Below, piece after piece: positions 1 through 42,037 of a DNA stretch of 64,000 nt. A program made the translations under genes and the position numbers. This DNA comes from an uncultured Gammaproteobacteria bacterium (lineage in GTDB: Bacteria > Patescibacteriota > Microgenomatia > Levybacterales > UBA12049): the NCBI GenBank assembly GCA_964474445.1, contig CAYYSJ010000001.1:14530-78529 (forward strand). Reading direction: 5' to 3'. Each line of letters opens with the position of its first letter. Positions within the stretch are counted from its first letter, which is position 1. Below the pieces are notes generated by a model. The model saw nothing but the letters and a program-made list of their open reading frames with translations, did no database searches and was not told where the DNA came from.

Positions 1-619
1 ATAACCATATCTAATCGAGAAAAAGAAGACAGAGAAATGTTATCTTCAATTTTTCTTGAAATTATTTCCAATAGAAATAACAGATTGCATTACAGTACAG
101 GAGGATTGCCATTTTTGTTATATATATTGATTCTTGTGTCAACGTTTATGGTGATACTGTTATCACTATTTATAGCTGTAGATAATGTTGTTATCGACTA
201 TATGTTTACTTCATCTATTGCCATTCTGGCATTCTTAATAATTACCATAATAGATGATCTCAATCATCCTTTCAGACCGGGTACATGGCATATTTCAGCT
301 AAGAAACATAGTAAGTTATTAGGTAAAGTTAATAGCTTATAAGTTCGATTAACTGATATCTTAAGACTAGATTAATCCTCTAAACACCCGACAAATGAAA
401 TTGGAAGTACAAAGTTATATACGACCTACTGATATAGTTATTAACTTCGTGATAACTTCCCCACTCAGGGTCTACAGGAATTACTTCTATCGTACTTGCT
501 TATAGTAGTTTGAAGACATGCCAGATGCCTCCAAACAAATTAAAAAGTAATATGACCCTCTTCTTTACCAGAAACGACATGAAATCCAACCAGAAGGAAC
601 AGCCCGCTCTCAACATCCT

Positions 620-8252: not shown

Positions 8253-10502
<2,250 letters not shown>

Positions 10503-10512
<10 letters not shown>

Positions 10513-13045: not shown

Positions 13046-13825
13046 TTATAATCGTATCACAAAGAATGCCATGATAACTCCAGCTGCAATAATGGCAATG
13101 GTGATAGCAACATTTAAAATAATACCCATTTGAATAATTTTTCCAGCTAGTGGATTTCTTCCAATAGCCTCAATCCCCCGGTTTGCCGTTTGGCCAAAAA
13201 ACCAGAATCCAAACAGAAATGAGAGAACAATGATGAGTGCTGCAATAAAGTATTTGAGGACTTTTGTTGGTTCTTCATAAGTTGCTGTTGCTGAAAGCGT
13301 GAGAACATCAAAGATGCTATTGGTGACTGTTACCCTACTGGTGAAGTAATGGATACTTATTGAAACAGGAAGCTGAATAACATCATTTACATTGTTGGGT
13401 GCAAAATCAGTCAGTGCTGTTCCTATGACAAATCCTGAATGGGTTGCTTTCATCCCTACTCCTGGGATCGTTGAAGTTGTAATCAGATCTCCTTTTTTAA
13501 TCTTCCCATTTGAAGCAGAGACAAGAACATACGTATTTCCGGCTGATGCAACTGGATAGCTGTCTTTTTGTGGGATAACGATGGCAACAGCTGGAGCATC
13601 GGTGACAACACCAATGACGAGTGGATCGTATGCACGGGTTGAGAGTTTGTAGCCGGAATCAGTTGCTGAGACGAGTTTTCCTGTACTAATATTGCTCCCA
13701 GTTATTGGGACATATGTTGCAACACTCAAAGAATTTGTTCCAATGTCTGCAAACACACGATTTCCTTTGAGGAAAAAGATTCCGCATACAAAAATAATAA
13801 GGAAAATGGGCAGTAATTTTCTCAT
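13046..13825 (-). CDS. secreted protein with a C-terminal ATP-synthase-c-subunit-like TM hairpin (atypical AtpE fusion; conserved carboxylate absent)
   Basis: N-terminal signal peptide (MRKLLPIFLIIFVCGIFFLKGNRVFA), then a ~190-aa Thr/Ser/Val-rich domain. The last ~70 aa align with AtpE: TANRGIEAIGRNPLAGK vs B. subtilis SRTVEGIARQPEAGK, and MGIILNVAITIAIIAAGVIMAFF vs MGIALVEALPIIAVVIAFLAFF. It sits exactly where atpE sits in canonical operons, 1 nt upstream of atpF. Helix 1 lacks the Gly-rich motif. Confidence 0.5.
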   Translation of the reverse strand: MRKLLPIFLIIFVCGIFFLKGNRVFADIGTNSLSVATYVPITGSNISTGKLVSATDSGYKLSTRAYDPLVIGVVTDAPAVAIVIPQKDSYPVASAGNTYVLVSASNGKIKKGDLITTSTIPGVGMKATHSGFVIGTALTDFAPNNVNDVIQLPVSISIHYFTSRVTVTNSIFDVLTLSATATYEEPTKVLKYFIAALIIVLSFLFGFWFFGQTANRGIEAIGRNPLAGKIIQMGIILNVAITIAIIAAGVIMAFFVIRL

Positions 13826-13831
13826 AGTCTC

Positions 13832-16800
13832 TTACAGTTTATTTTTTACAATAAACCAATCAAAATGGACATCAACTTGTTGAGGTGTACTCACCTGAAT
13901 CACAAACTTCCCATTTCCTTTTTGGGCGATCGATAATGGTGTAGTGATATTTGTTGTGGGGGTAATAAAGACTTTGTCTGATGCTGTCATAGCTGGTGTA
14001 TCAACTTCCACACTGGTAGATCCCTGTGGAATAACTGCAGAACCAATAGAGGTTGTGCCTTTCACAACAAATTGCGTTGCCTGCACCGTTTGTGCTCCAA
14101 TAACACCTTGTGTTGTGATATTCCCTGATGTATCAATCGTAACAAGCCCATTAAGGAAATCAATACCACCAAGTCTTTGGTACTGGAGATATAAACTACC
14201 AGCAAGCGTATCAATCTTTCCTTCTAGACCATGGATAGTGATTAGGCCAGCACTCACGTTGCCGGTAATACCCAAATCTGTCACGGTTGTTCGACCCAAC
14301 ACATTTAACGTCTGTGAAATGGTCGCTGTATCTGCAACGAGTGGAACATTTTGCAGTTGTGAAGAAACTGATGCTGAGATAGGCATATTCAGAGAACTGG
14401 ATGTTGCTCCTGCATAGAAGCCTGGATCATACCATGCAGGTTGAACGGCAACCATAATTTGTCCATAGGTTCCTTGCTGATTGAAAGATTCCATTGCATG
14501 GCCAACAATTTGTCCGGCACTTGTTGCTTTGACTAAAACGCCTGAGTCAGTTGCAATTGTGAGAGGATCACCTATACTGATGTTTCCTTGTGCTGTTGAA
14601 ACTTTTGCTAGTAACTGTCCAACAAGACCAACGAGGGTGAAGTTTGGATCACCAGCATGGTTGCCTCCTCCAACAAATGATGGGTGGGAAGAGATGATGC
14701 CTACAATACTTTTTCCGCTAATGCATTTGGTCACACCGCCAGTTACATCAAGACAAACAGTATCCCCTGGGACTAATGATTCGTTCACATCCTTCTTTGG
14801 GAAGTATTCAGCCATATCCAAGCCATTACCATTGTATGAGACACCGGTTCCTCCATTCGAGTCAATAGACCCTTGTGATTCACCCTTGCCATTTAAGAAT
14901 CTAATAAAGTTATTCCCGTTATTCTGAGTTGTCGGGACAGTACCGTTACCAGTGAAGCCAAGTTTGACGATAAGGCCACCACTATTGGCAGTAGTATTTG
15001 TGTTATAGATTTGGGCAGCTGCTGTTGCTGAAAAGTTTCCTTGCAGATCAAGGTTATACATTGGATTCGTTGTCCCAAGTCCCATATATCCGTTTCGTGT
15101 CAGAACAAATCTGGTCAGACCTGATGAGGAGGCAGTCATCAGATCTCCAACGCCTGACTGATCAACAATAAAAGATGAGAAACTTGTTGACCCAGAAACT
15201 GAAGCAATTGGTAATGTCCCAAAGGCAAAATTCCCGTTAAATCCTTGTGCAGATCTCAGATCAAACGTTGCTTTTGGATTTGATCCTCCAGCGTCATTCA
15301 CTGTTACAAATCCATCGAAAGAATGCTGGGCAGACTGGAAATCAGCGAACCAATTGCTATTGCCTGAGTAGTAGAAATATGGAGCGTTGATACCACCATA
15401 TTGGTTCACAACGAAGTTTCCATCAGCTGCCCGAATTTGATTCACTCCATTCCCATTTGTCCCGACATCCAAAATAGCAAAAGGGTTACTGGTATCAGCG
15501 TTCCTGATACCAACATTTCCATTACGATTAATGGTAAATTTCGCAACTCCAGATAAGGAAGCAGTAAAGATGTCTCCTAGCCCCTGATCATTCACCACAA
15601 GCGCTGCTTTCCCACCACCATTTGGCTGTACAACAACATCCCCAATACCTGTACCTTGCCCAAGAGTGATATTCCCCGTTCCAGAAGAGAGCAGTGTTAA
15701 TCCGGCATTGGAGGAAGTCTGAATTGTAGAACTGGATCCATTACCAATTGTTACTGTTGTGCCTTTAACAGTAAGCCCACCAGCAAGAGTTACATTGCCT
15801 GAACCATCATCAAGAACGTTGTTAAAGGTATCGATCGTGTTGTTCGCGTAAATAGTAAATGCTGTACTACCCAAACCATTTGCTGATTGGGCAGAGTTAA
15901 GAACACCAAAGATTGGATCTGTTGTCCCACTCACACTTCCTCCAATACCAAGTCCTTTGTAGTATCCACCAACAGTAGATGTGCCAGAAGGAGCAGGAAG
16001 TTGCTGGGAAATACCATAATAGAGACTTTGAGTTGGCCAGTAGATACCAAACCAGTCATTTGAATTGCCGCCATTCACACCTGCCGTGTAGGAGTGGACA
16101 AATGCGCCGTTTGTCGTTGGACTTGCCCCTAAGACCACAGTGTAATGTTTCGCTGAAGTATTATTGTTGGGGACATCAACCTGTAACCCAATGTCGGTAT
16201 TGGCAAGTGAATTGCCAGTATCGTTGAGTGAGAGATACCCTCCATATGCAGTATCTGCATTCGTTGCTGGTGTATTTGTGACCGTTTCATAAAGACCATA
16301 GCCTGTTGCAGATGAAGTTGTCGTGGCAATAGTACCTGTACTACTTATACCCTTTCCTCCAGAGGTCGTGATAGTTGGCCAGTTCAGTGTTAGTAAGCCA
16401 TTTGCGGTGATATTGCCATTGTTGGCAATGGTAAATTTAGTTGTTCCAGAAACAGAGGCAGTGAAGAGATCACCCAAGCCAGAGTTATCAATAACAAGTC
16501 CCGCAAAAGAAGTTTTCCCTGATAATGAGGCTATTGGAGTTGTTCCTAAATTGCCTCTGACATCAAGGGTTGCAAGAGGAGAAGTTGTTCCAATCCCTAA
16601 GTTACCACTTGCGTCAATTCTAAAGCGTTCTATATTATTTGTCGCTAAAATAATTGGTCCATTGAGATAGTTCCAAAATCCCAGAGCATTTGTGTAAGGA
16701 GAGGCCCATCCGCTGCTCGCGAGAAAAAGAGATGCTCCTTTAGTACCAGCTCCAACACCGAGGTCATTATATAATGATATTCTTGTTTCTGCACTACTTC

Positions 16801-22078: not shown

Positions 22079-22678
22079 ATGAAAACATACTTGTTTCCTA
22101 TTTATCTGACAGTATTATCTATACTATTTAGCATGCTTTCTCACCAGGCTTTTGCTCATTTTCCAGCAACTGATAACTCTATGACAGTAGAATTGCATGT
22201 TGATCCAGATGATAACCCGACCCCTGGGCAGCAAGCATATTTGTACTTTCTTTTTGATGATGCAACAAAAAGGTTTCAATTGTCTCAATGCAACTGTGTT
22301 GTCTCTATTTCAGAACAAGGAAGACAAATTTACCGTCAGAAACTTACCGAGAAAAAAGATACACGCCCTAGTATTTGGGGAGCAAGCCTCCCTTATGTTT
22401 TTCCACAACAAGACGTCTATCATATACAAGTGACAGGTGGTCCAACGGTTCAAAATACCTTTAAGCCATTTGATATCTCCTGGGATTTTCGAGTAGATCC
22501 TGATGGCTCTCCTGGTATTGTGAAAGGAGGCCCTTCTGATATTCAAATTCTTTTAGGAACAGCAATAGGAGGAGTTATCTTTCTAGGACTTTTTGGTTGG
22601 TTTATAAAAAAACAAATTATCGATAGCGAAGACGTAGACAATACAAAAAGTAACCATTACAATAAGAAAAGATCATGA
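22079..22678 (+). CDS. secreted, C-terminally membrane-anchored protein (mature N-terminus His after AFA; possible metal-binding)
   Basis: Signal peptide ending SHQAFA-HF, C-terminal TM (AIGGVIFLGLFGWFI) and a basic tail; 4-nt overlap with the downstream YcnI-like gene. Confidence 0.4.
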   Translation: MKTYLFPIYLTVLSILFSMLSHQAFAHFPATDNSMTVELHVDPDDNPTPGQQAYLYFLFDDATKRFQLSQCNCVVSISEQGRQIYRQKLTEKKDTRPSIWGASLPYVFPQQDVYHIQVTGGPTVQNTFKPFDISWDFRVDPDGSPGIVKGGPSDIQILLGTAIGGVIFLGLFGWFIKKQIIDSEDVDNTKSNHYNKKRS

Positions 22679-23286
22679 TAAAACGTTCATTTGCAAGTAT
22701 TACCCTAGGTCTTACCAGCTTTCTTTTTCTTGCAGCTCCTGCCTTTGCTCATGTAGTCGTTACTCCCAAGCAAGTCGGTATTGCTCAGACACAAGTATTT
22801 GATATGAGTGTCCCAACTGAAAAGAATAATCCCACAGTTGGAGTTAAATTATTAATTCCTGCATGGATTCGTGGTGATGTCATGCCAAATGTGAAACCAG
22901 GATGGACAATCACTGTCGTAAAAGATGGGGACGTTATAAAAGAAATTGACTGGACAGGTGGAACGATTCCTCCAGGACAAAGGGATGATTTTTTCTTTCA
23001 AACACAGGCGCCAAGTACTGAAGTAACCCTCAAGTGGAAAGCGATCCAGATGTATCAAGACGGGAGTACCGTTGAGTGGACTCATGATCCAACAAGTAAT
23101 CCTGAAGATGATTCTGCTCCACCTCCCTATTCAACCACAAAAGTGGTCAATGATCTAAAAGGTCCAAATCTATCACTGAAAGAGAGGATAAAGAATAAAC
23201 TGCCTTTGGCAATCAGTTTTGCTGCTCTTGCATTCTCTGTCTTAGCCTTAGGAATATCGATACAAAAAAAGAGACAACATCAGTAA
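22675..23286 (+). CDS. YcnI-like (DUF1775) copper-binding protein, C-terminally membrane-anchored
   Basis: Signal peptide ...AFA-HVVVTP; motifs VPTEKNNPTVGVKLLIP, GWT..V, FFFQTQAP and YQDGSTVEWTHD match B. subtilis YcnI (AHVSVKP, VPSEKN.PT, YKDGSIVEWTGD); C-terminal TM plus KKRQ tail. Confidence 0.7.
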   Translation: MIKRSFASITLGLTSFLFLAAPAFAHVVVTPKQVGIAQTQVFDMSVPTEKNNPTVGVKLLIPAWIRGDVMPNVKPGWTITVVKDGDVIKEIDWTGGTIPPGQRDDFFFQTQAPSTEVTLKWKAIQMYQDGSTVEWTHDPTSNPEDDSAPPPYSTTKVVNDLKGPNLSLKERIKNKLPLAISFAALAFSVLALGISIQKKRQHQ

Positions 23287-23305
23287 ATGGTCCTTCTTCT
23301 AACTC

Positions 23306-24934
23306 ATGAGAAAGCATCCGCTTATCTATTCACTCTTACTCTTCTTGTTTGGACTGCTTTTTTCTGTGTTTCCTCACATGGTATATGCTGATCCAGGAGG
23401 ACTCAACCCATTTTTAGCCATCAATGGGAGTTATGAACTCCTCTATCCTATTTCAATCTCCTCTCTCCCCTATACAACCTTTCCTGTTCCGCTCTACTCT
23501 GCACATGACAACTACCTTATCAACCAGCCGTTAACATTTTCTCTTGATACAAATCTCATGCCTGTGAGTAAAGAAGATCTTCCCAATGCACAATTTGAAT
23601 GGGATTTTGGTGATGGAACAAAAGGAGAAGGACTTCAGAATACGCATACGTACACAAAAATGGGTTCATACATCATGACTATTCGCATTAAAAATGCACC
23701 TCACTATGTTCCACTTACCTCTGCTGATCAAAGCATCCCTTTTAACGCCGTTCTTATTGCGATTCTTCCTTATCCTTCTTATCAACTGCCCCAAGCAGTT
23801 ATACAACTCAATCAGCAAACACTCCCTGATCCCCTCACAAATTCTCTTACCTTTGATTTTACGAAAGGGTGGCTATTTGATGCTTCTGTATCAAAACAAG
23901 GTTCTGCCCCTCTTGTCTCATATTTTTGGGATTTTGGTGACCAAACATCAAGTACAGAAGCAACAGTGCATCACACATTAAAGCCAAATGACCAAATAGT
24001 CAGTCAAACCTTTCCTGTCCTCAGAGTAGTAGATGCCAATGGGTTTATTTCTGATACCTATGTTACGGTTAATAATACTGCCTACAGTCCACGTGGTCTT
24101 CTTTTTAAACGTGCAGTAAAATCTGCGAATCAACAGCAAAATAATCAAAATGTCCTTGTTACCCTTTCAACGAGGTTCAATGATTTCCTGAAGCGCCTTA
24201 CGGTACAGATTTTTGCGAACAACAAGATAGATTTGGTTCTCTTGGGAGTAGTTGTCTTTTTTGCTTTTTTTGCCGGAAGTTTGCATGCACTTACTCCAGG
24301 TCATGGGAAAAGTATGATGGCAGCATTTCTTATTGGGAGAGGGAAAAGTAGAATTTTTGATGTTCTTATTCTTGCTGCGTCAATCACCTTTGCTCATACA
24401 TTTGTTATTTATCTTCTTGGTTTTACTCTTCTTTTTCTCACAAATCATTTGGTAGTAAATAGAATTCTTCCCTATTTTGATAAAGCAAGTGCTATTGCTG
24501 TTGCGATTCTTGCCCTAAGCCTTATCTATAAGGGATGGAAAAATTACAAACATGCATGGGATCATGCTCATGACCATGAACATTCTCACTCTCACCACCA
24601 TCATGATGATAATAATAAACATCACTACTTAGGAAATAGAATTCTTGAACTTATTTTTGCTGGGGTAAGCGGAGGACTCACTCCCTGTATTGATGCACTT
24701 GCATTACTACTACTTGCCGTCAGTATTAACCAGATAGGCTTTGGACTTTTTATTATTTTTATTTTTAGTCTTGGTCTATCAGGATGTATTATCCTTCTTG
24801 GAACACTTGTTGTGCTGGGTAAAAATACATTACAACTTGAGAAACGGTTTGGAAATACTGCAGATATCTATGGACCACTCCTTGCCGGCATATTTATTCT
24901 TTTTTTGAGTATCAATATCTTTTTGACAAAATAA
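23306..24934 (+). CDS. fusion protein: extracytoplasmic PKD-like domains + RcnA/NicO-type nickel/cobalt efflux permease
   Basis: Signal peptide; two PKD signatures (FEWDFGDGT, YFWDFGDQT). C-terminal half matches E. coli RcnA: HALTPGHGKSMMAAFLIG vs HGLEPGHSKTMMAAFII, His-rich loop HAWDHAHDHEHSHSHHHHDD, and VSGGLTPCIDALALLLLAV vs LTGGLIPCPAAITVLLI. Confidence 0.7.
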   Translation: MRKHPLIYSLLLFLFGLLFSVFPHMVYADPGGLNPFLAINGSYELLYPISISSLPYTTFPVPLYSAHDNYLINQPLTFSLDTNLMPVSKEDLPNAQFEWDFGDGTKGEGLQNTHTYTKMGSYIMTIRIKNAPHYVPLTSADQSIPFNAVLIAILPYPSYQLPQAVIQLNQQTLPDPLTNSLTFDFTKGWLFDASVSKQGSAPLVSYFWDFGDQTSSTEATVHHTLKPNDQIVSQTFPVLRVVDANGFISDTYVTVNNTAYSPRGLLFKRAVKSANQQQNNQNVLVTLSTRFNDFLKRLTVQIFANNKIDLVLLGVVVFFAFFAGSLHALTPGHGKSMMAAFLIGRGKSRIFDVLILAASITFAHTFVIYLLGFTLLFLTNHLVVNRILPYFDKASAIAVAILALSLIYKGWKNYKHAWDHAHDHEHSHSHHHHDDNNKHHYLGNRILELIFAGVSGGLTPCIDALALLLLAVSINQIGFGLFIIFIFSLGLSGCIILLGTLVVLGKNTLQLEKRFGNTADIYGPLLAGIFILFLSINIFLTK

Positions 24935-41404: not shown

Positions 41405-42037
41405 ATGAGTTATACATGTCCAATGCACCCAGAGATAGAGCAAAATAAACCAGGCCGATGCCCAAAGTGTGGTATGAAACTTGTTGCAAAGGAGAATCTG
41501 ACAAGTGCTTCTTTATCACATGAAACCCATGAAGAAAGCCAGAATACACTGGCATGGAAAAGCTACATTCCACTGATTGTTATTATCGGTTTAATCTTGC
41601 TTACTACACTGGTCCTCTCTTTGAAAGACATGCAAGGAGGAAATTTCAGTATTGCAAACACCATATCGTATTTTATGATTGGATTCTTCCTTGTATTCTC
41701 TGGATTCAAACTGATAGATTTGAAAGGCTTTGCAGAAGGATATGCAACGTATGACCTTCTCGCGCTAAGGTGGTTTGGCTATGGATATATCTATCCATTT
41801 ATTGAATTATTTTTCGGATTAGCAATGCTATTGATACTTCAAACAAAGTGGCTCCTTTGGGCTGAGCTTATTGTGATGGTGTTTAGTGGGATAGGTGTTG
41901 CGCTGAAATTAGCAAGGAACGAAAAATTTCAATGTGCATGTCTTGGGACTTTTCTGAAAGTTCCTCTCACAAAAGTAACCCTTGTTGAAGATTTTGGTAT
42001 GGCCGCTTTAGCACTTATCTTGATTTTGATTCATTAA
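41405..42037 (+). CDS. heavy-metal-binding domain (CPMHP...CPKCGM) fused to MauE/DoxX-like membrane domain
   Basis: N-terminal YTCPMHPEIEQNKPGRCPKCGMKL (the YHYHP/HMBD motif seen on Cu-ATPases and CusB), then 4-5 TM helices resembling the MauE/DoxX family. Confidence 0.6.
   Translation: MSYTCPMHPEIEQNKPGRCPKCGMKLVAKENLTSASLSHETHEESQNTLAWKSYIPLIVIIGLILLTTLVLSLKDMQGGNFSIANTISYFMIGFFLVFSGFKLIDLKGFAEGYATYDLLALRWFGYGYIYPFIELFFGLAMLLILQTKWLLWAELIVMVFSGIGVALKLARNEKFQCACLGTFLKVPLTKVTLVEDFGMAALALILILIH

Follow-up and report, generated by a model that had tools for sequence, protein, structure and literature searches.

Subunit c of the F-type ATP synthase (AtpE; PF00137, PS00605) is a hairpin of two membrane helices with both termini outside and a cytoplasmic E-x-x-x-R-[QN]-P loop; helix 1 carries a GxGxGxG motif, helix 2 an Asp or Glu, and the gene lies directly before atpF with an a gene alongside. 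A stretch of 64,000 nucleotides (nt) from contig CAYYSJ010000001.1 (positions 14,530 to 78,529; hereafter the window) encodes a 259-amino-acid (aa) protein, named cfus here, that shares with AtpE the hairpin, its topology as predicted, the loop, the hydrophobic spacing of helix 2 and the genomic slot. In contrast to AtpE, cfus has Ile243 in place of the helix 2 carboxylate, lacks GxGxGxG and a neighbouring a gene, is longer by about 185 residues at the N-terminus (signal peptide plus exported beta domain) and scores below the Pfam and NCBIfam thresholds. It is best read as subunit c, the rotor-ring component, of a divergent F-type ATPase that is typical of Microgenomates-type members of the Candidate Phyla Radiation (CPR) and whose operon has no a gene. 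This ATPase is unlikely to translocate ions in the usual manner; it may instead power a process at the cell surface.

The closest described systems come from Mycoplasma. The Type 3 F1-like X0 ATPase (MMCAP2_0575-0581; PMC3369863, PMC12994834) joins F1 alpha, beta, gamma and epsilon to a membrane sector that is non-canonical and has neither the usual a nor the usual c. Its ATP hydrolysis is needed for the surface MIB-MIP system, and among its components MMCAP2_0577 combines an N-terminal signal peptide with extracellular globular domains and, at the C-terminus, two transmembrane (TM) helices (PMC12994834). The cfus operon resembles it in this make-up, in a missing or shortened N-terminal helix of alpha and in a tie to surface proteins (MIB-MIP in Mycoplasma, where the tie is both genetic and functional). 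The Mycoplasma system, which coexists with a canonical Type 1 operon, includes a 12-TM protein and has no b or delta, whereas the cfus operon has no 12-TM neighbour, retains b and delta in most cases and encodes a hairpin that is recognisably c-derived. Membership in the Mycoplasma group was rejected on this gene content and on the scores for MSC_0618 (NF045934; 398.7 against a cut-off of 570) and MSC_0619 (NF045936; 252.3 against 520), canonical atpD and atpA scoring higher. In the gliding motor of Mycoplasma mobile, a twin F1-like ATPase (MMOB1660/1670), F1 drives giant surface proteins (PMC11864180). That motor is F1-derived and has a mechanical output on giant surface proteins rather than ion transport, as proposed below for cfus, but it is a cytoplasmic dimeric chain without a c-like ring, and the NCBIfam models glide_MMOB1660 and glide_MMOB1670 gave 360 against a cut-off of 600 and 353 against 850, again less than the canonical F1 models. 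The likeness to the Mycoplasma systems would be one of mode of action, not of membership.

Within CPR, a review regards the enzyme of Patescibacteria as an ordinary F-type ATP synthase whose purpose is puzzling in organisms without respiratory chains (PMC11665869), and Saccharibacteria possess complete atp clusters with H+-type c subunits (bioRxiv 10.1101/2022.02.13.480300). A full-text literature search found no description of an N-terminally extended, carboxylate-less c or of an a-less F-ATPase in CPR.

The c-type hairpin at the C-terminus of cfus had been proposed in an earlier, sequence-only reading of the window. The likeness is weak in any single test, but all tests agree. The match of PF00137 (ATP-synt_C) to the C-terminal 79 aa is weak (E 0.027; 15.2 bits, where the gathering score is 24) but spans profile positions 2-58 of 60; the full-length protein has no match to PF00137 in Pfam, and no NCBIfam model matches cfus. 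A profile of 39 family hairpins compared with PDB sequences returned F-type c subunits as seven of its first eight matches, headed by c2 of Acetobacterium woodii (E 0.0024) in an alignment that is ungapped from the loop to the C-terminus, and hhalign of the cfus family against nine canonical c subunits gave E 6.9e-5 and a probability of 63% over 69 columns. In both alignments the cfus loop falls on the canonical E-x-x-x-R-Q/N-P loop. The helical hairpin with cytoplasmic R-[QN]-P loop of a c subunit is present in cfus. A hidden Markov model (HMM) of canonical c, run over 3,038 open reading frames (ORFs) from the window and related loci, picked out the cfus ORFs alone. The PROSITE pattern PS00605, R-[NQ]-P-x(10)-[hydrophobic](2)-x(3)-[hydrophobic]-x-[DE], was applied by hand and fits everywhere except at the final [DE], where Ile243 stands. 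Several family members have been named 'F0F1-type ATP synthase membrane subunit c' (COG0636) by the Joint Genome Institute (JGI) and 'ATP synthase F0 subunit C' by NCBI. The homology to c rests on profile, fold and synteny evidence combined; on these the proposed hairpin holds, while its Pfam match stays below threshold.

The R-x-P loop, which the same reading had described as conserved, is indeed so: it reads GRNPLA in 236 of the 262 family members used for all loop and carboxylate counts, and G217, A220, G222, R223, N224, P225 and A227 are invariant in 27 aligned family sequences. No other segment of cfus is as well conserved, pointing to a partner in the cytoplasm that is conserved too.

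In the ungapped profile register the canonical Asp/Glu column corresponds to Ile243 (R223+20), where none of the 262 members has D or E and I, V, L, A or F stands instead. Helix 2 is free of any acidic residue in 259 members, an acid being present in three. The sequence-only reading was right that the helix 2 carboxylate is absent and that neither hairpin helix of cfus carries a membrane-embedded acidic residue, but it had placed Val/Asn at the site, in a register that paired two 'MGI' strings and was off by 4-5 residues; no register of the helix 2 alignment puts an acid at the carboxylate position. R+15, which is Asn238 in cfus, is strictly polar in the family (N in 234 members, H in 22, S in 5, D in 1); its N/H and the T/S found at R+19 are strongly conserved and occupy one face of the helix. 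Counted from the lost carboxylate, Asn238 is five residues closer to the cytoplasm, and it shares its helix face with the conserved Thr/Ser242, Gly249 and Ala253. As a substitute for the carboxylate it was judged unlikely, because Asn can be neither protonated nor deprotonated and the residue is that much nearer the cytoplasm. Helix 1, YFIAALIIVLSFLFGFWFFG, has conserved S, G and F positions and lacks GxGxGxG, the profile alignment showing a 6-residue deletion there relative to canonical c; this absence, also reported earlier, is family-wide.

To our knowledge, no carboxylate-free F- or V-type c-ring is known. Hairpins without the carboxylate do occur in functional rings, as c1 of A. woodii (PDB 4bem), in V-type enzymes and in some archaeal c; these belong to rings of which other hairpins keep the carboxylate, with an a subunit present and no exported domain. 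For cfus, neither a carboxylate-bearing partner nor an a subunit was found in the loci searched.

An AlphaFold2 model of cfus, built with 27 homologues as input, has a mean predicted local distance difference test (pLDDT) score of 83.6. Its first helix (aa 5-18) is the hydrophobic N-terminus, inside a signal peptide with a positive n-region, a hydrophobic core and a VFA c-region that were read from the sequence; the Ala-Gln boundary that follows is kept in the family alignment, and cleavage after VFA26 is likely. The beta domain (aa 33-157) is modelled at pLDDT >90, the linker at aa 158-170 with low confidence (<50 at aa 163-170), followed by a helix at aa 171-181 and by the two-helix hairpin (aa 186-221 and 226-258), where P186 and Y192 are invariant or nearly so in the family. 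Sequence and model thus agree with the earlier description of a signal peptide and a beta-type domain before the hairpin, an arrangement that is true of the whole family. The Sec-exported domain and both termini are inferred to lie outside and the R-N-P loop inside, in agreement with the topology of canonical c and with the positive-inside rule; the earlier placement of the N-domain on the outer face is in line with it.

The gene itself is real. Four independent sequencing runs each yielded an identical protein flanked by the same genes, which excludes the frameshift or assembly join that the sequence-only reading had asked to be checked. That reading had found no internal ATG from which a stand-alone c subunit could start; ATG, GTG and TTG are all absent between aa 150 and 232, and therefore cfus cannot yield a separate c subunit. 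Nor is cfus a single-gene oddity; it belongs to a CPR family that is both large and conserved. Among 5.8 billion proteins searched there are at least 127 cfus clusters at 90% identity, whose listed members are 165-385 aa long (nearly all about 230-340 aa) and come from Patescibacteria, Microgenomates and WWE3, and a second search, with a profile and over 1.84 billion representatives, gave 772 clusters (50% identity) at E<=1e-30. The extended architecture, which had been suggested as something to seek in relatives, is full-length in all 270 homologues listed (120 from the first search and 150 from the second, the latter the best of the 772 clusters). Relatives are encoded by 437 species-representative genomes, and OY970292.1 (Levybacteria, 1.14 Mb) and CAWJTN010000001.1 (a 1.23-Mb Roizmanbacteria contig) belong to genomes carrying cfus. 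Many cfus loci are from metagenome-assembled genomes (MAGs) titled 'uncultured Gammaproteobacteria bacterium' (loci L005, L007, L008, L010-L012 and others) and one is from a 'Candidatus Methylomirabilota'; these titles are probably taxonomic mislabels in public records.

In the window, cfus belongs to a minus-strand unit encoding, in order, a giant protein, cfus, a b-like protein, delta/OSCP, alpha, gamma, beta and a short epsilon (Table 1). All junctions overlap or have gaps of at most 6 nt, the giant gene lying 6 nt upstream of cfus and a single nucleotide separating the cfus stop codon from the b start codon. The tight packing and the gene order therefore place cfus in the atpE slot of a bacterial atp operon, directly upstream of atpF. 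A search for related loci, built on a 12-sequence cfus alignment, found the order cfus-b-delta-alpha-gamma-beta-epsilon in 70 of the 80 best loci, and the full ATPase set also stands behind cfus in the 1.23-Mb Roizmanbacteria contig and in three divergent members. Of the other 10 loci, six are cut by contig ends, one has gamma and epsilon directly after cfus, and in the remaining three, from a WWE3 genome and at L078 and L079, cfus stands alone; the L078 and L079 MAGs contain a second cfus with a full ATPase set.

Table 1. Position in the window of cfus, its parts and the neighbouring genes (aa numbers refer to the encoded protein).
Feature	Position	Strand	Basis or remark
cfus, 259 aa	13046..13825	(-)	ORF; c-type hairpin fused behind signal peptide and beta domain
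Signal peptide, aa 1-26 (MRKLLPIFLIIFVCGIFFLKGNRVFA)	13748..13825	(-)	Sequence features; helix 5-18 in model
Extracytoplasmic beta domain, aa 33-157	13355..13729	(-)	Phage autochaperone / capsid-decoration-like fold
Linker and short helix, aa 158-185	13271..13354	(-)	Between beta domain and membrane
Hairpin helix 1, aa 186-221, without GxGxGxG	13163..13270	(-)	Model helix
Cytoplasmic polar loop GIEAIGRNPLAGK, aa 217-229	13139..13177	(-)	Best-conserved segment of cfus
Hairpin helix 2, aa 226-258	13052..13150	(-)	Ungapped alignment to PDB c subunits; hhalign
Asn238 codon	13112-13114	(-)	Helix 2 of cfus
Ile243 codon	13097-13099	(-)	Canonical carboxylate column of cfus helix 2
Giant surface protein, 2059 aa	13832..20011	(-)	ORF; N-terminal TM aa 44-66; C-terminal tail-fibre / intramolecular chaperone-like module
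Giant-protein module, aa 1703-1860, homologous to cfus N-domain	14432..14905	(-)	BLASTP
b-like peripheral stalk protein, 209 aa	12415..13044	(-)	Position; one N-terminal TM helix, then coiled coil
Delta/OSCP-like protein, 154 aa	11954..12418	(-)	PF00213 E 2.7e-5, 24.7 bits vs cut-off 22.3
F1 alpha, 484 aa	10503..11957	(-)	TIGR00962 383.5 bits vs cut-off 484.45
F1 gamma, 295 aa, very divergent	9625..10512	(-)	TIGR01146 55 bits vs cut-off 194
F1 beta, 464 aa	8252..9646	(-)	TIGR01039 459.4 bits vs cut-off 462.85
Epsilon, 97 aa	7959..8252	(-)	N-terminal beta-sandwich alone, without regulatory C-terminal helices

Two distinct cfus paralogues occur in each of several MAGs (L012 and L074, L008 and L061, L017 and L078, L015 and L079, L060 and L068). 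In some pairs both copies have a full ATPase set; in others the second copy is of a 'GRNPAAS' subtype and is an orphan beside a single-TM protein of about 800 aa and one of about 330 aa. Such copies could be mixed or alternative rings, or bin contamination.

An a subunit was sought within 10 kb on either side of about 90 operons (about 1.3 Mb) and in the 64-kb window. A survey of ORFs and hydrophobicity found no 5-6-TM ORF of the right size beside the operon. PF00119 (ATP-synt_A) was absent from the multi-TM ORFs of the window and from the multi-TM neighbours of cfus, which are a prepilin peptidase, an EamA transporter, HisKA_7TM and unknowns, and neither PF00119 nor PF00137 appears in the precomputed Pfam lists of the neighbour genes. 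Searches of 3,038 stop-to-stop ORFs of at least 80 aa, by tblastn with Escherichia coli AtpB and with a three-sequence a-subunit HMM, returned noise only; a weak tblastn match to AtpB in L037 was rejected, there being no ORF underneath it. No canonical c with a carboxylate was found in the same space either. The canonical atpBEFHAGDC arrangement, with PF00119 encoded alongside, is thus not present within these limits. The missing a gene is one of three findings that go beyond the sequence-only reading, the others being the N-domain fold shared with the giant protein and the size of the CPR family.

The F1 part of the operon is predicted to be catalytically competent. Alpha has GDRKSGKT and, in SVTRVG, the arginine finger, and the catalytic motifs of beta are intact, LFFIDNIFR among them. 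All five subunits tested (alpha, beta, gamma, delta and epsilon) are nevertheless below their NCBIfam equivalog cut-offs: delta scored 17 bits against 57.5, and the epsilon models match only positions 3-78 of 130, with 21 bits against 67. PF00231 is recorded on gamma orthologues and PF02823 on epsilon orthologues. Membership of alpha and beta among the ATPases of the type III secretion system (T3SS) was rejected on NCBIfam scores. The N-ATPase (atpDCQRBEFAG) is likewise a divergent F-type variant, but it keeps a and a Na+-binding c, and membership in that group was rejected (alt_F1F0 beta 416 against 752, alpha 332 against 750).

Alpha starts at position 24 of the atpA model, its delta-binding N-terminal helix being shortened. 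The b-like protein has no significant match in Pfam or NCBIfam; among 66 orthologues the C-terminal, F1-proximal end is conserved, whereas the TM helix is barely conserved and is missing in several. In L028 (10001-14780), L081 (1285-3245) and L086 (10001-15006), one of them a Daviesbacteria MAG, b and delta are missing and alpha follows cfus directly, so these lineages may have no peripheral stalk. With the unconserved or missing b helix, the operons free of b and delta, the short alpha N-terminus and the truncated epsilon, the membrane stator side is degenerate, while the most strongly constrained segment of cfus is its loop towards the rotor. The cfus operon is rated as an F-type ATPase with a re-purposed membrane sector.

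A possible purpose is indicated by the outer domain. The N-domain of cfus is similar at the fold level to phage intramolecular chaperone and decoration proteins, namely the C-terminal autochaperone of phi29 gp12 (PDB 3gqh/3suc; Peptidase_G2) and the cement or decoration proteins of HFTV1, Sf11 (gp40), TW1, Pam3 and BB1. In contrast to these, it is fused to an ATPase membrane hairpin and gives no sign of autoproteolysis, and the sequence similarity is below threshold, with 15.9 bits against 27 for PF23982 (XM1_gp53) and 13.2 against 24 for PF09956 (Phage_cement_2); a PHROGs search with the N-domain and with the C-terminus of the giant protein found nothing relevant. Phage autochaperone and decoration domains are typically trimerising modules. 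In viral contigs from IMG/VR (L088-L094), one of them labelled a giant-virus MAG (GVMAG), segments resemble cfus aa ~60-160 at 33-50% identity, the hairpin never being present. Judged by this similarity, the outer-domain module of cfus is one that viruses also have.

The giant gene upstream, which appears to share a transcription unit with cfus, encodes a related module. By BLASTP, cfus aa 102-141 and giant-protein aa ~1804-1843 are 43% identical over 40 aa (E 4e-5); PF11962 (Peptidase_G2) gives a weak match at giant-protein aa 1703-1782, and in many loci the cfus N-domains and the neighbouring giant ORFs match reciprocally in tblastn. PF13884 (Peptidase_S74), a tail-fibre chaperone domain, is found on the giant protein next to P0114. 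Of 64 loci, 36 have an ORF of 500 aa or longer no more than 1.6 kb upstream of cfus (7 on the same strand, 29 divergent), against a background of about 12% in distant parts of the same loci, and ORFs of at least 1500 aa are found in 13 of 64 loci upstream of cfus versus 2 of 47 downstream of epsilon. The giant protein of the window has long Gly/Thr/Ser-rich, fibre-like sequence and repeats itself internally in units of about 60 aa: LATLDVRGNLGTTP is found at both aa 908 and aa 1146, and a third, degenerate copy lies near aa 1600. It looks like an analogue of a phage tail fibre or tail spike that serves as a cell-surface fibre.

Elsewhere in the window, a DUF1775 protein and, after it, a PKD-domain protein whose membrane region is DsbD-like (22675-24934, plus strand) and a protein with a heavy-metal-binding domain and MauE (41405-42037, plus strand) have possible copper or thiol-redox envelope functions unrelated to cfus. 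A 101-aa ORF (37-342, plus strand) matches only positions 147-222 of 232 of the Bestrophin-like domain and may be a fragment or pseudogene.

The data allow a mechanism to be proposed in which the cfus hairpins would still assemble into a ring, on which gamma and epsilon would dock via the conserved loop. Having no carboxylate and probably no a subunit, such a ring would carry neither H+ nor Na+, and ATP hydrolysis in F1 would therefore not be coupled to ion flow. The complex would instead be an ATP-hydrolysing F1 motor, the rotation or torsion of whose central stalk is passed by the ring across the membrane to an extracellular crown of beta domains, and the crown would act on, anchor or help to assemble the neighbouring giant fibres. 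It would work as the Mycoplasma F1-like X0 ATPases do, with an independent origin and a c-derived membrane element kept. This mechanism, an F1 motor on a non-ion-translocating ring with a crown acting on fibres, is given about an even chance of being correct. A bolder form, in which an ATP-powered transmembrane rotary device uses its carboxylate-free ring and a crown of phage-type trimerisation domains to hold or turn giant adhesins for attachment, motility or host manipulation by episymbiotic CPR, is unlikely on the present evidence. Several considerations tell against the proposed motor. Ring formation, docking of gamma and epsilon, and rotation are all deduced from sequence; giant proteins accompany cfus as a statistical tendency (about 56% of loci) and in varying orientation, and such genes are common in CPR; low family scores mean little by themselves, since CPR proteins are divergent in general; a and a canonical c may be encoded beyond the 10-kb flanks and the window; and most operons keep b and delta, which is hard to explain without a membrane stator.

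That retention is what would be expected of an F1Fo that translocates ions after all, a peripheral stalk normally implying a membrane stator. Subunit a, and perhaps a canonical c, would then be encoded elsewhere, as is the case for the split atp operons of other bacteria, and cfus would be either the sole c, with an unusual polar site (Asn/His238, Thr242, Ser202), or a minor member of a mixed ring, its outer domain being an accessory such as a cell-wall tether. The conserved polar residues at R+15 and R+19 on one helix face are compatible with this, as are the known mixed rings with carboxylate-less hairpins, 4bem chains being among the PDB matches. It is nonetheless unlikely, though it deserves to be taken seriously: the ~1.3 Mb around the operons and the window hold neither a nor a canonical c, the atpE slot is taken by cfus itself, helix 2 of cfus is free of acids, Asn cannot shuttle protons, the b helix is unconserved or missing and some lineages lack b and delta altogether, and where a MAG has two copies both are of the cfus type. 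Alternatively, nothing may rotate across the membrane, cfus being a static anchor that tethers an F1-like ATPase under a surface structure while the ATPase serves fibre export or assembly, or else a membrane-bound fibre chaperone on the outside. An analogy exists in type III secretion, whose FliI, FliJ and FliH are homologous to alpha-beta, gamma and b-delta. The chaperone modules of Peptidase_S74/G2 type on neighbouring fibres, the orphan cfus copies without adjacent ATPase genes (L009, L078, L079) and the scores of alpha and beta on T3SS ATPase models would fit, but any F1 scores on such models, and alpha and beta are far closer to F1 by NCBIfam. Furthermore, gamma and epsilon, the rotor parts that contact a c-ring, are kept in essentially all operons, the loop that canonically touches them is the best-conserved part of cfus, and the giant proteins, whose hydrophobic N-terminal segment is predicted to be a TM helix or signal anchor, need not rely on a dedicated ATPase. 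A static anchor is accordingly improbable to a similar degree.

More distant explanations concern cfus itself. The resemblance to c could have arisen by chance or convergence, cfus being an unrelated membrane-anchored surface protein beside ATPase genes; the sub-threshold Pfam score, the lack of an NCBIfam match and the modest hhalign probability are what this would predict. It is very unlikely given that seven of the first eight PDB matches are F-type c, ungapped from loop to C-terminus, that the E-x-x-x-R-N-P loop and the PROSITE-type hydrophobic spacing both match, that the atpE position is held in 70 of 80 loci, that the canonical-c HMM selects only cfus ORFs among 3,038, and that the COG0636 naming by JGI is independent. 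An artefact, in which a frameshift, mis-assembly or pseudogene fused a surface-protein gene to a normal atpE, is hardly credible. Nothing was found in its favour: four identical assemblies, 270 full-length homologues and 437 species-level genomes speak against it, all 262 members lack the carboxylate at the canonical column, and no internal start codon exists. Frameshift, assembly join and internal start were rejected on these grounds.

The cfus proteins are named inconsistently by annotation pipelines, as 'hypothetical' or as 'ATP synthase F0 subunit C', and pathway-completeness tools may therefore misjudge the complex. Metabolic models of CPR assume an ATP synthase that makes ATP from an ion gradient or builds one; if the ring has no ion site and there is no a subunit, this assumption fails for hundreds of species. 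On the bolder form of the proposal, the 'ATP synthase' annotated in a major CPR clade would neither make ATP nor build a membrane potential. If the proposed mechanism is true, a c-ring has been freed from ion transport and given an outward domain, making it a candidate for passing ATP-driven motion across the membrane. F1 would then have been exapted independently a second time, the Mycoplasma F1-like ATPases being the other case, and here for the first time with a recognisable c element retained.

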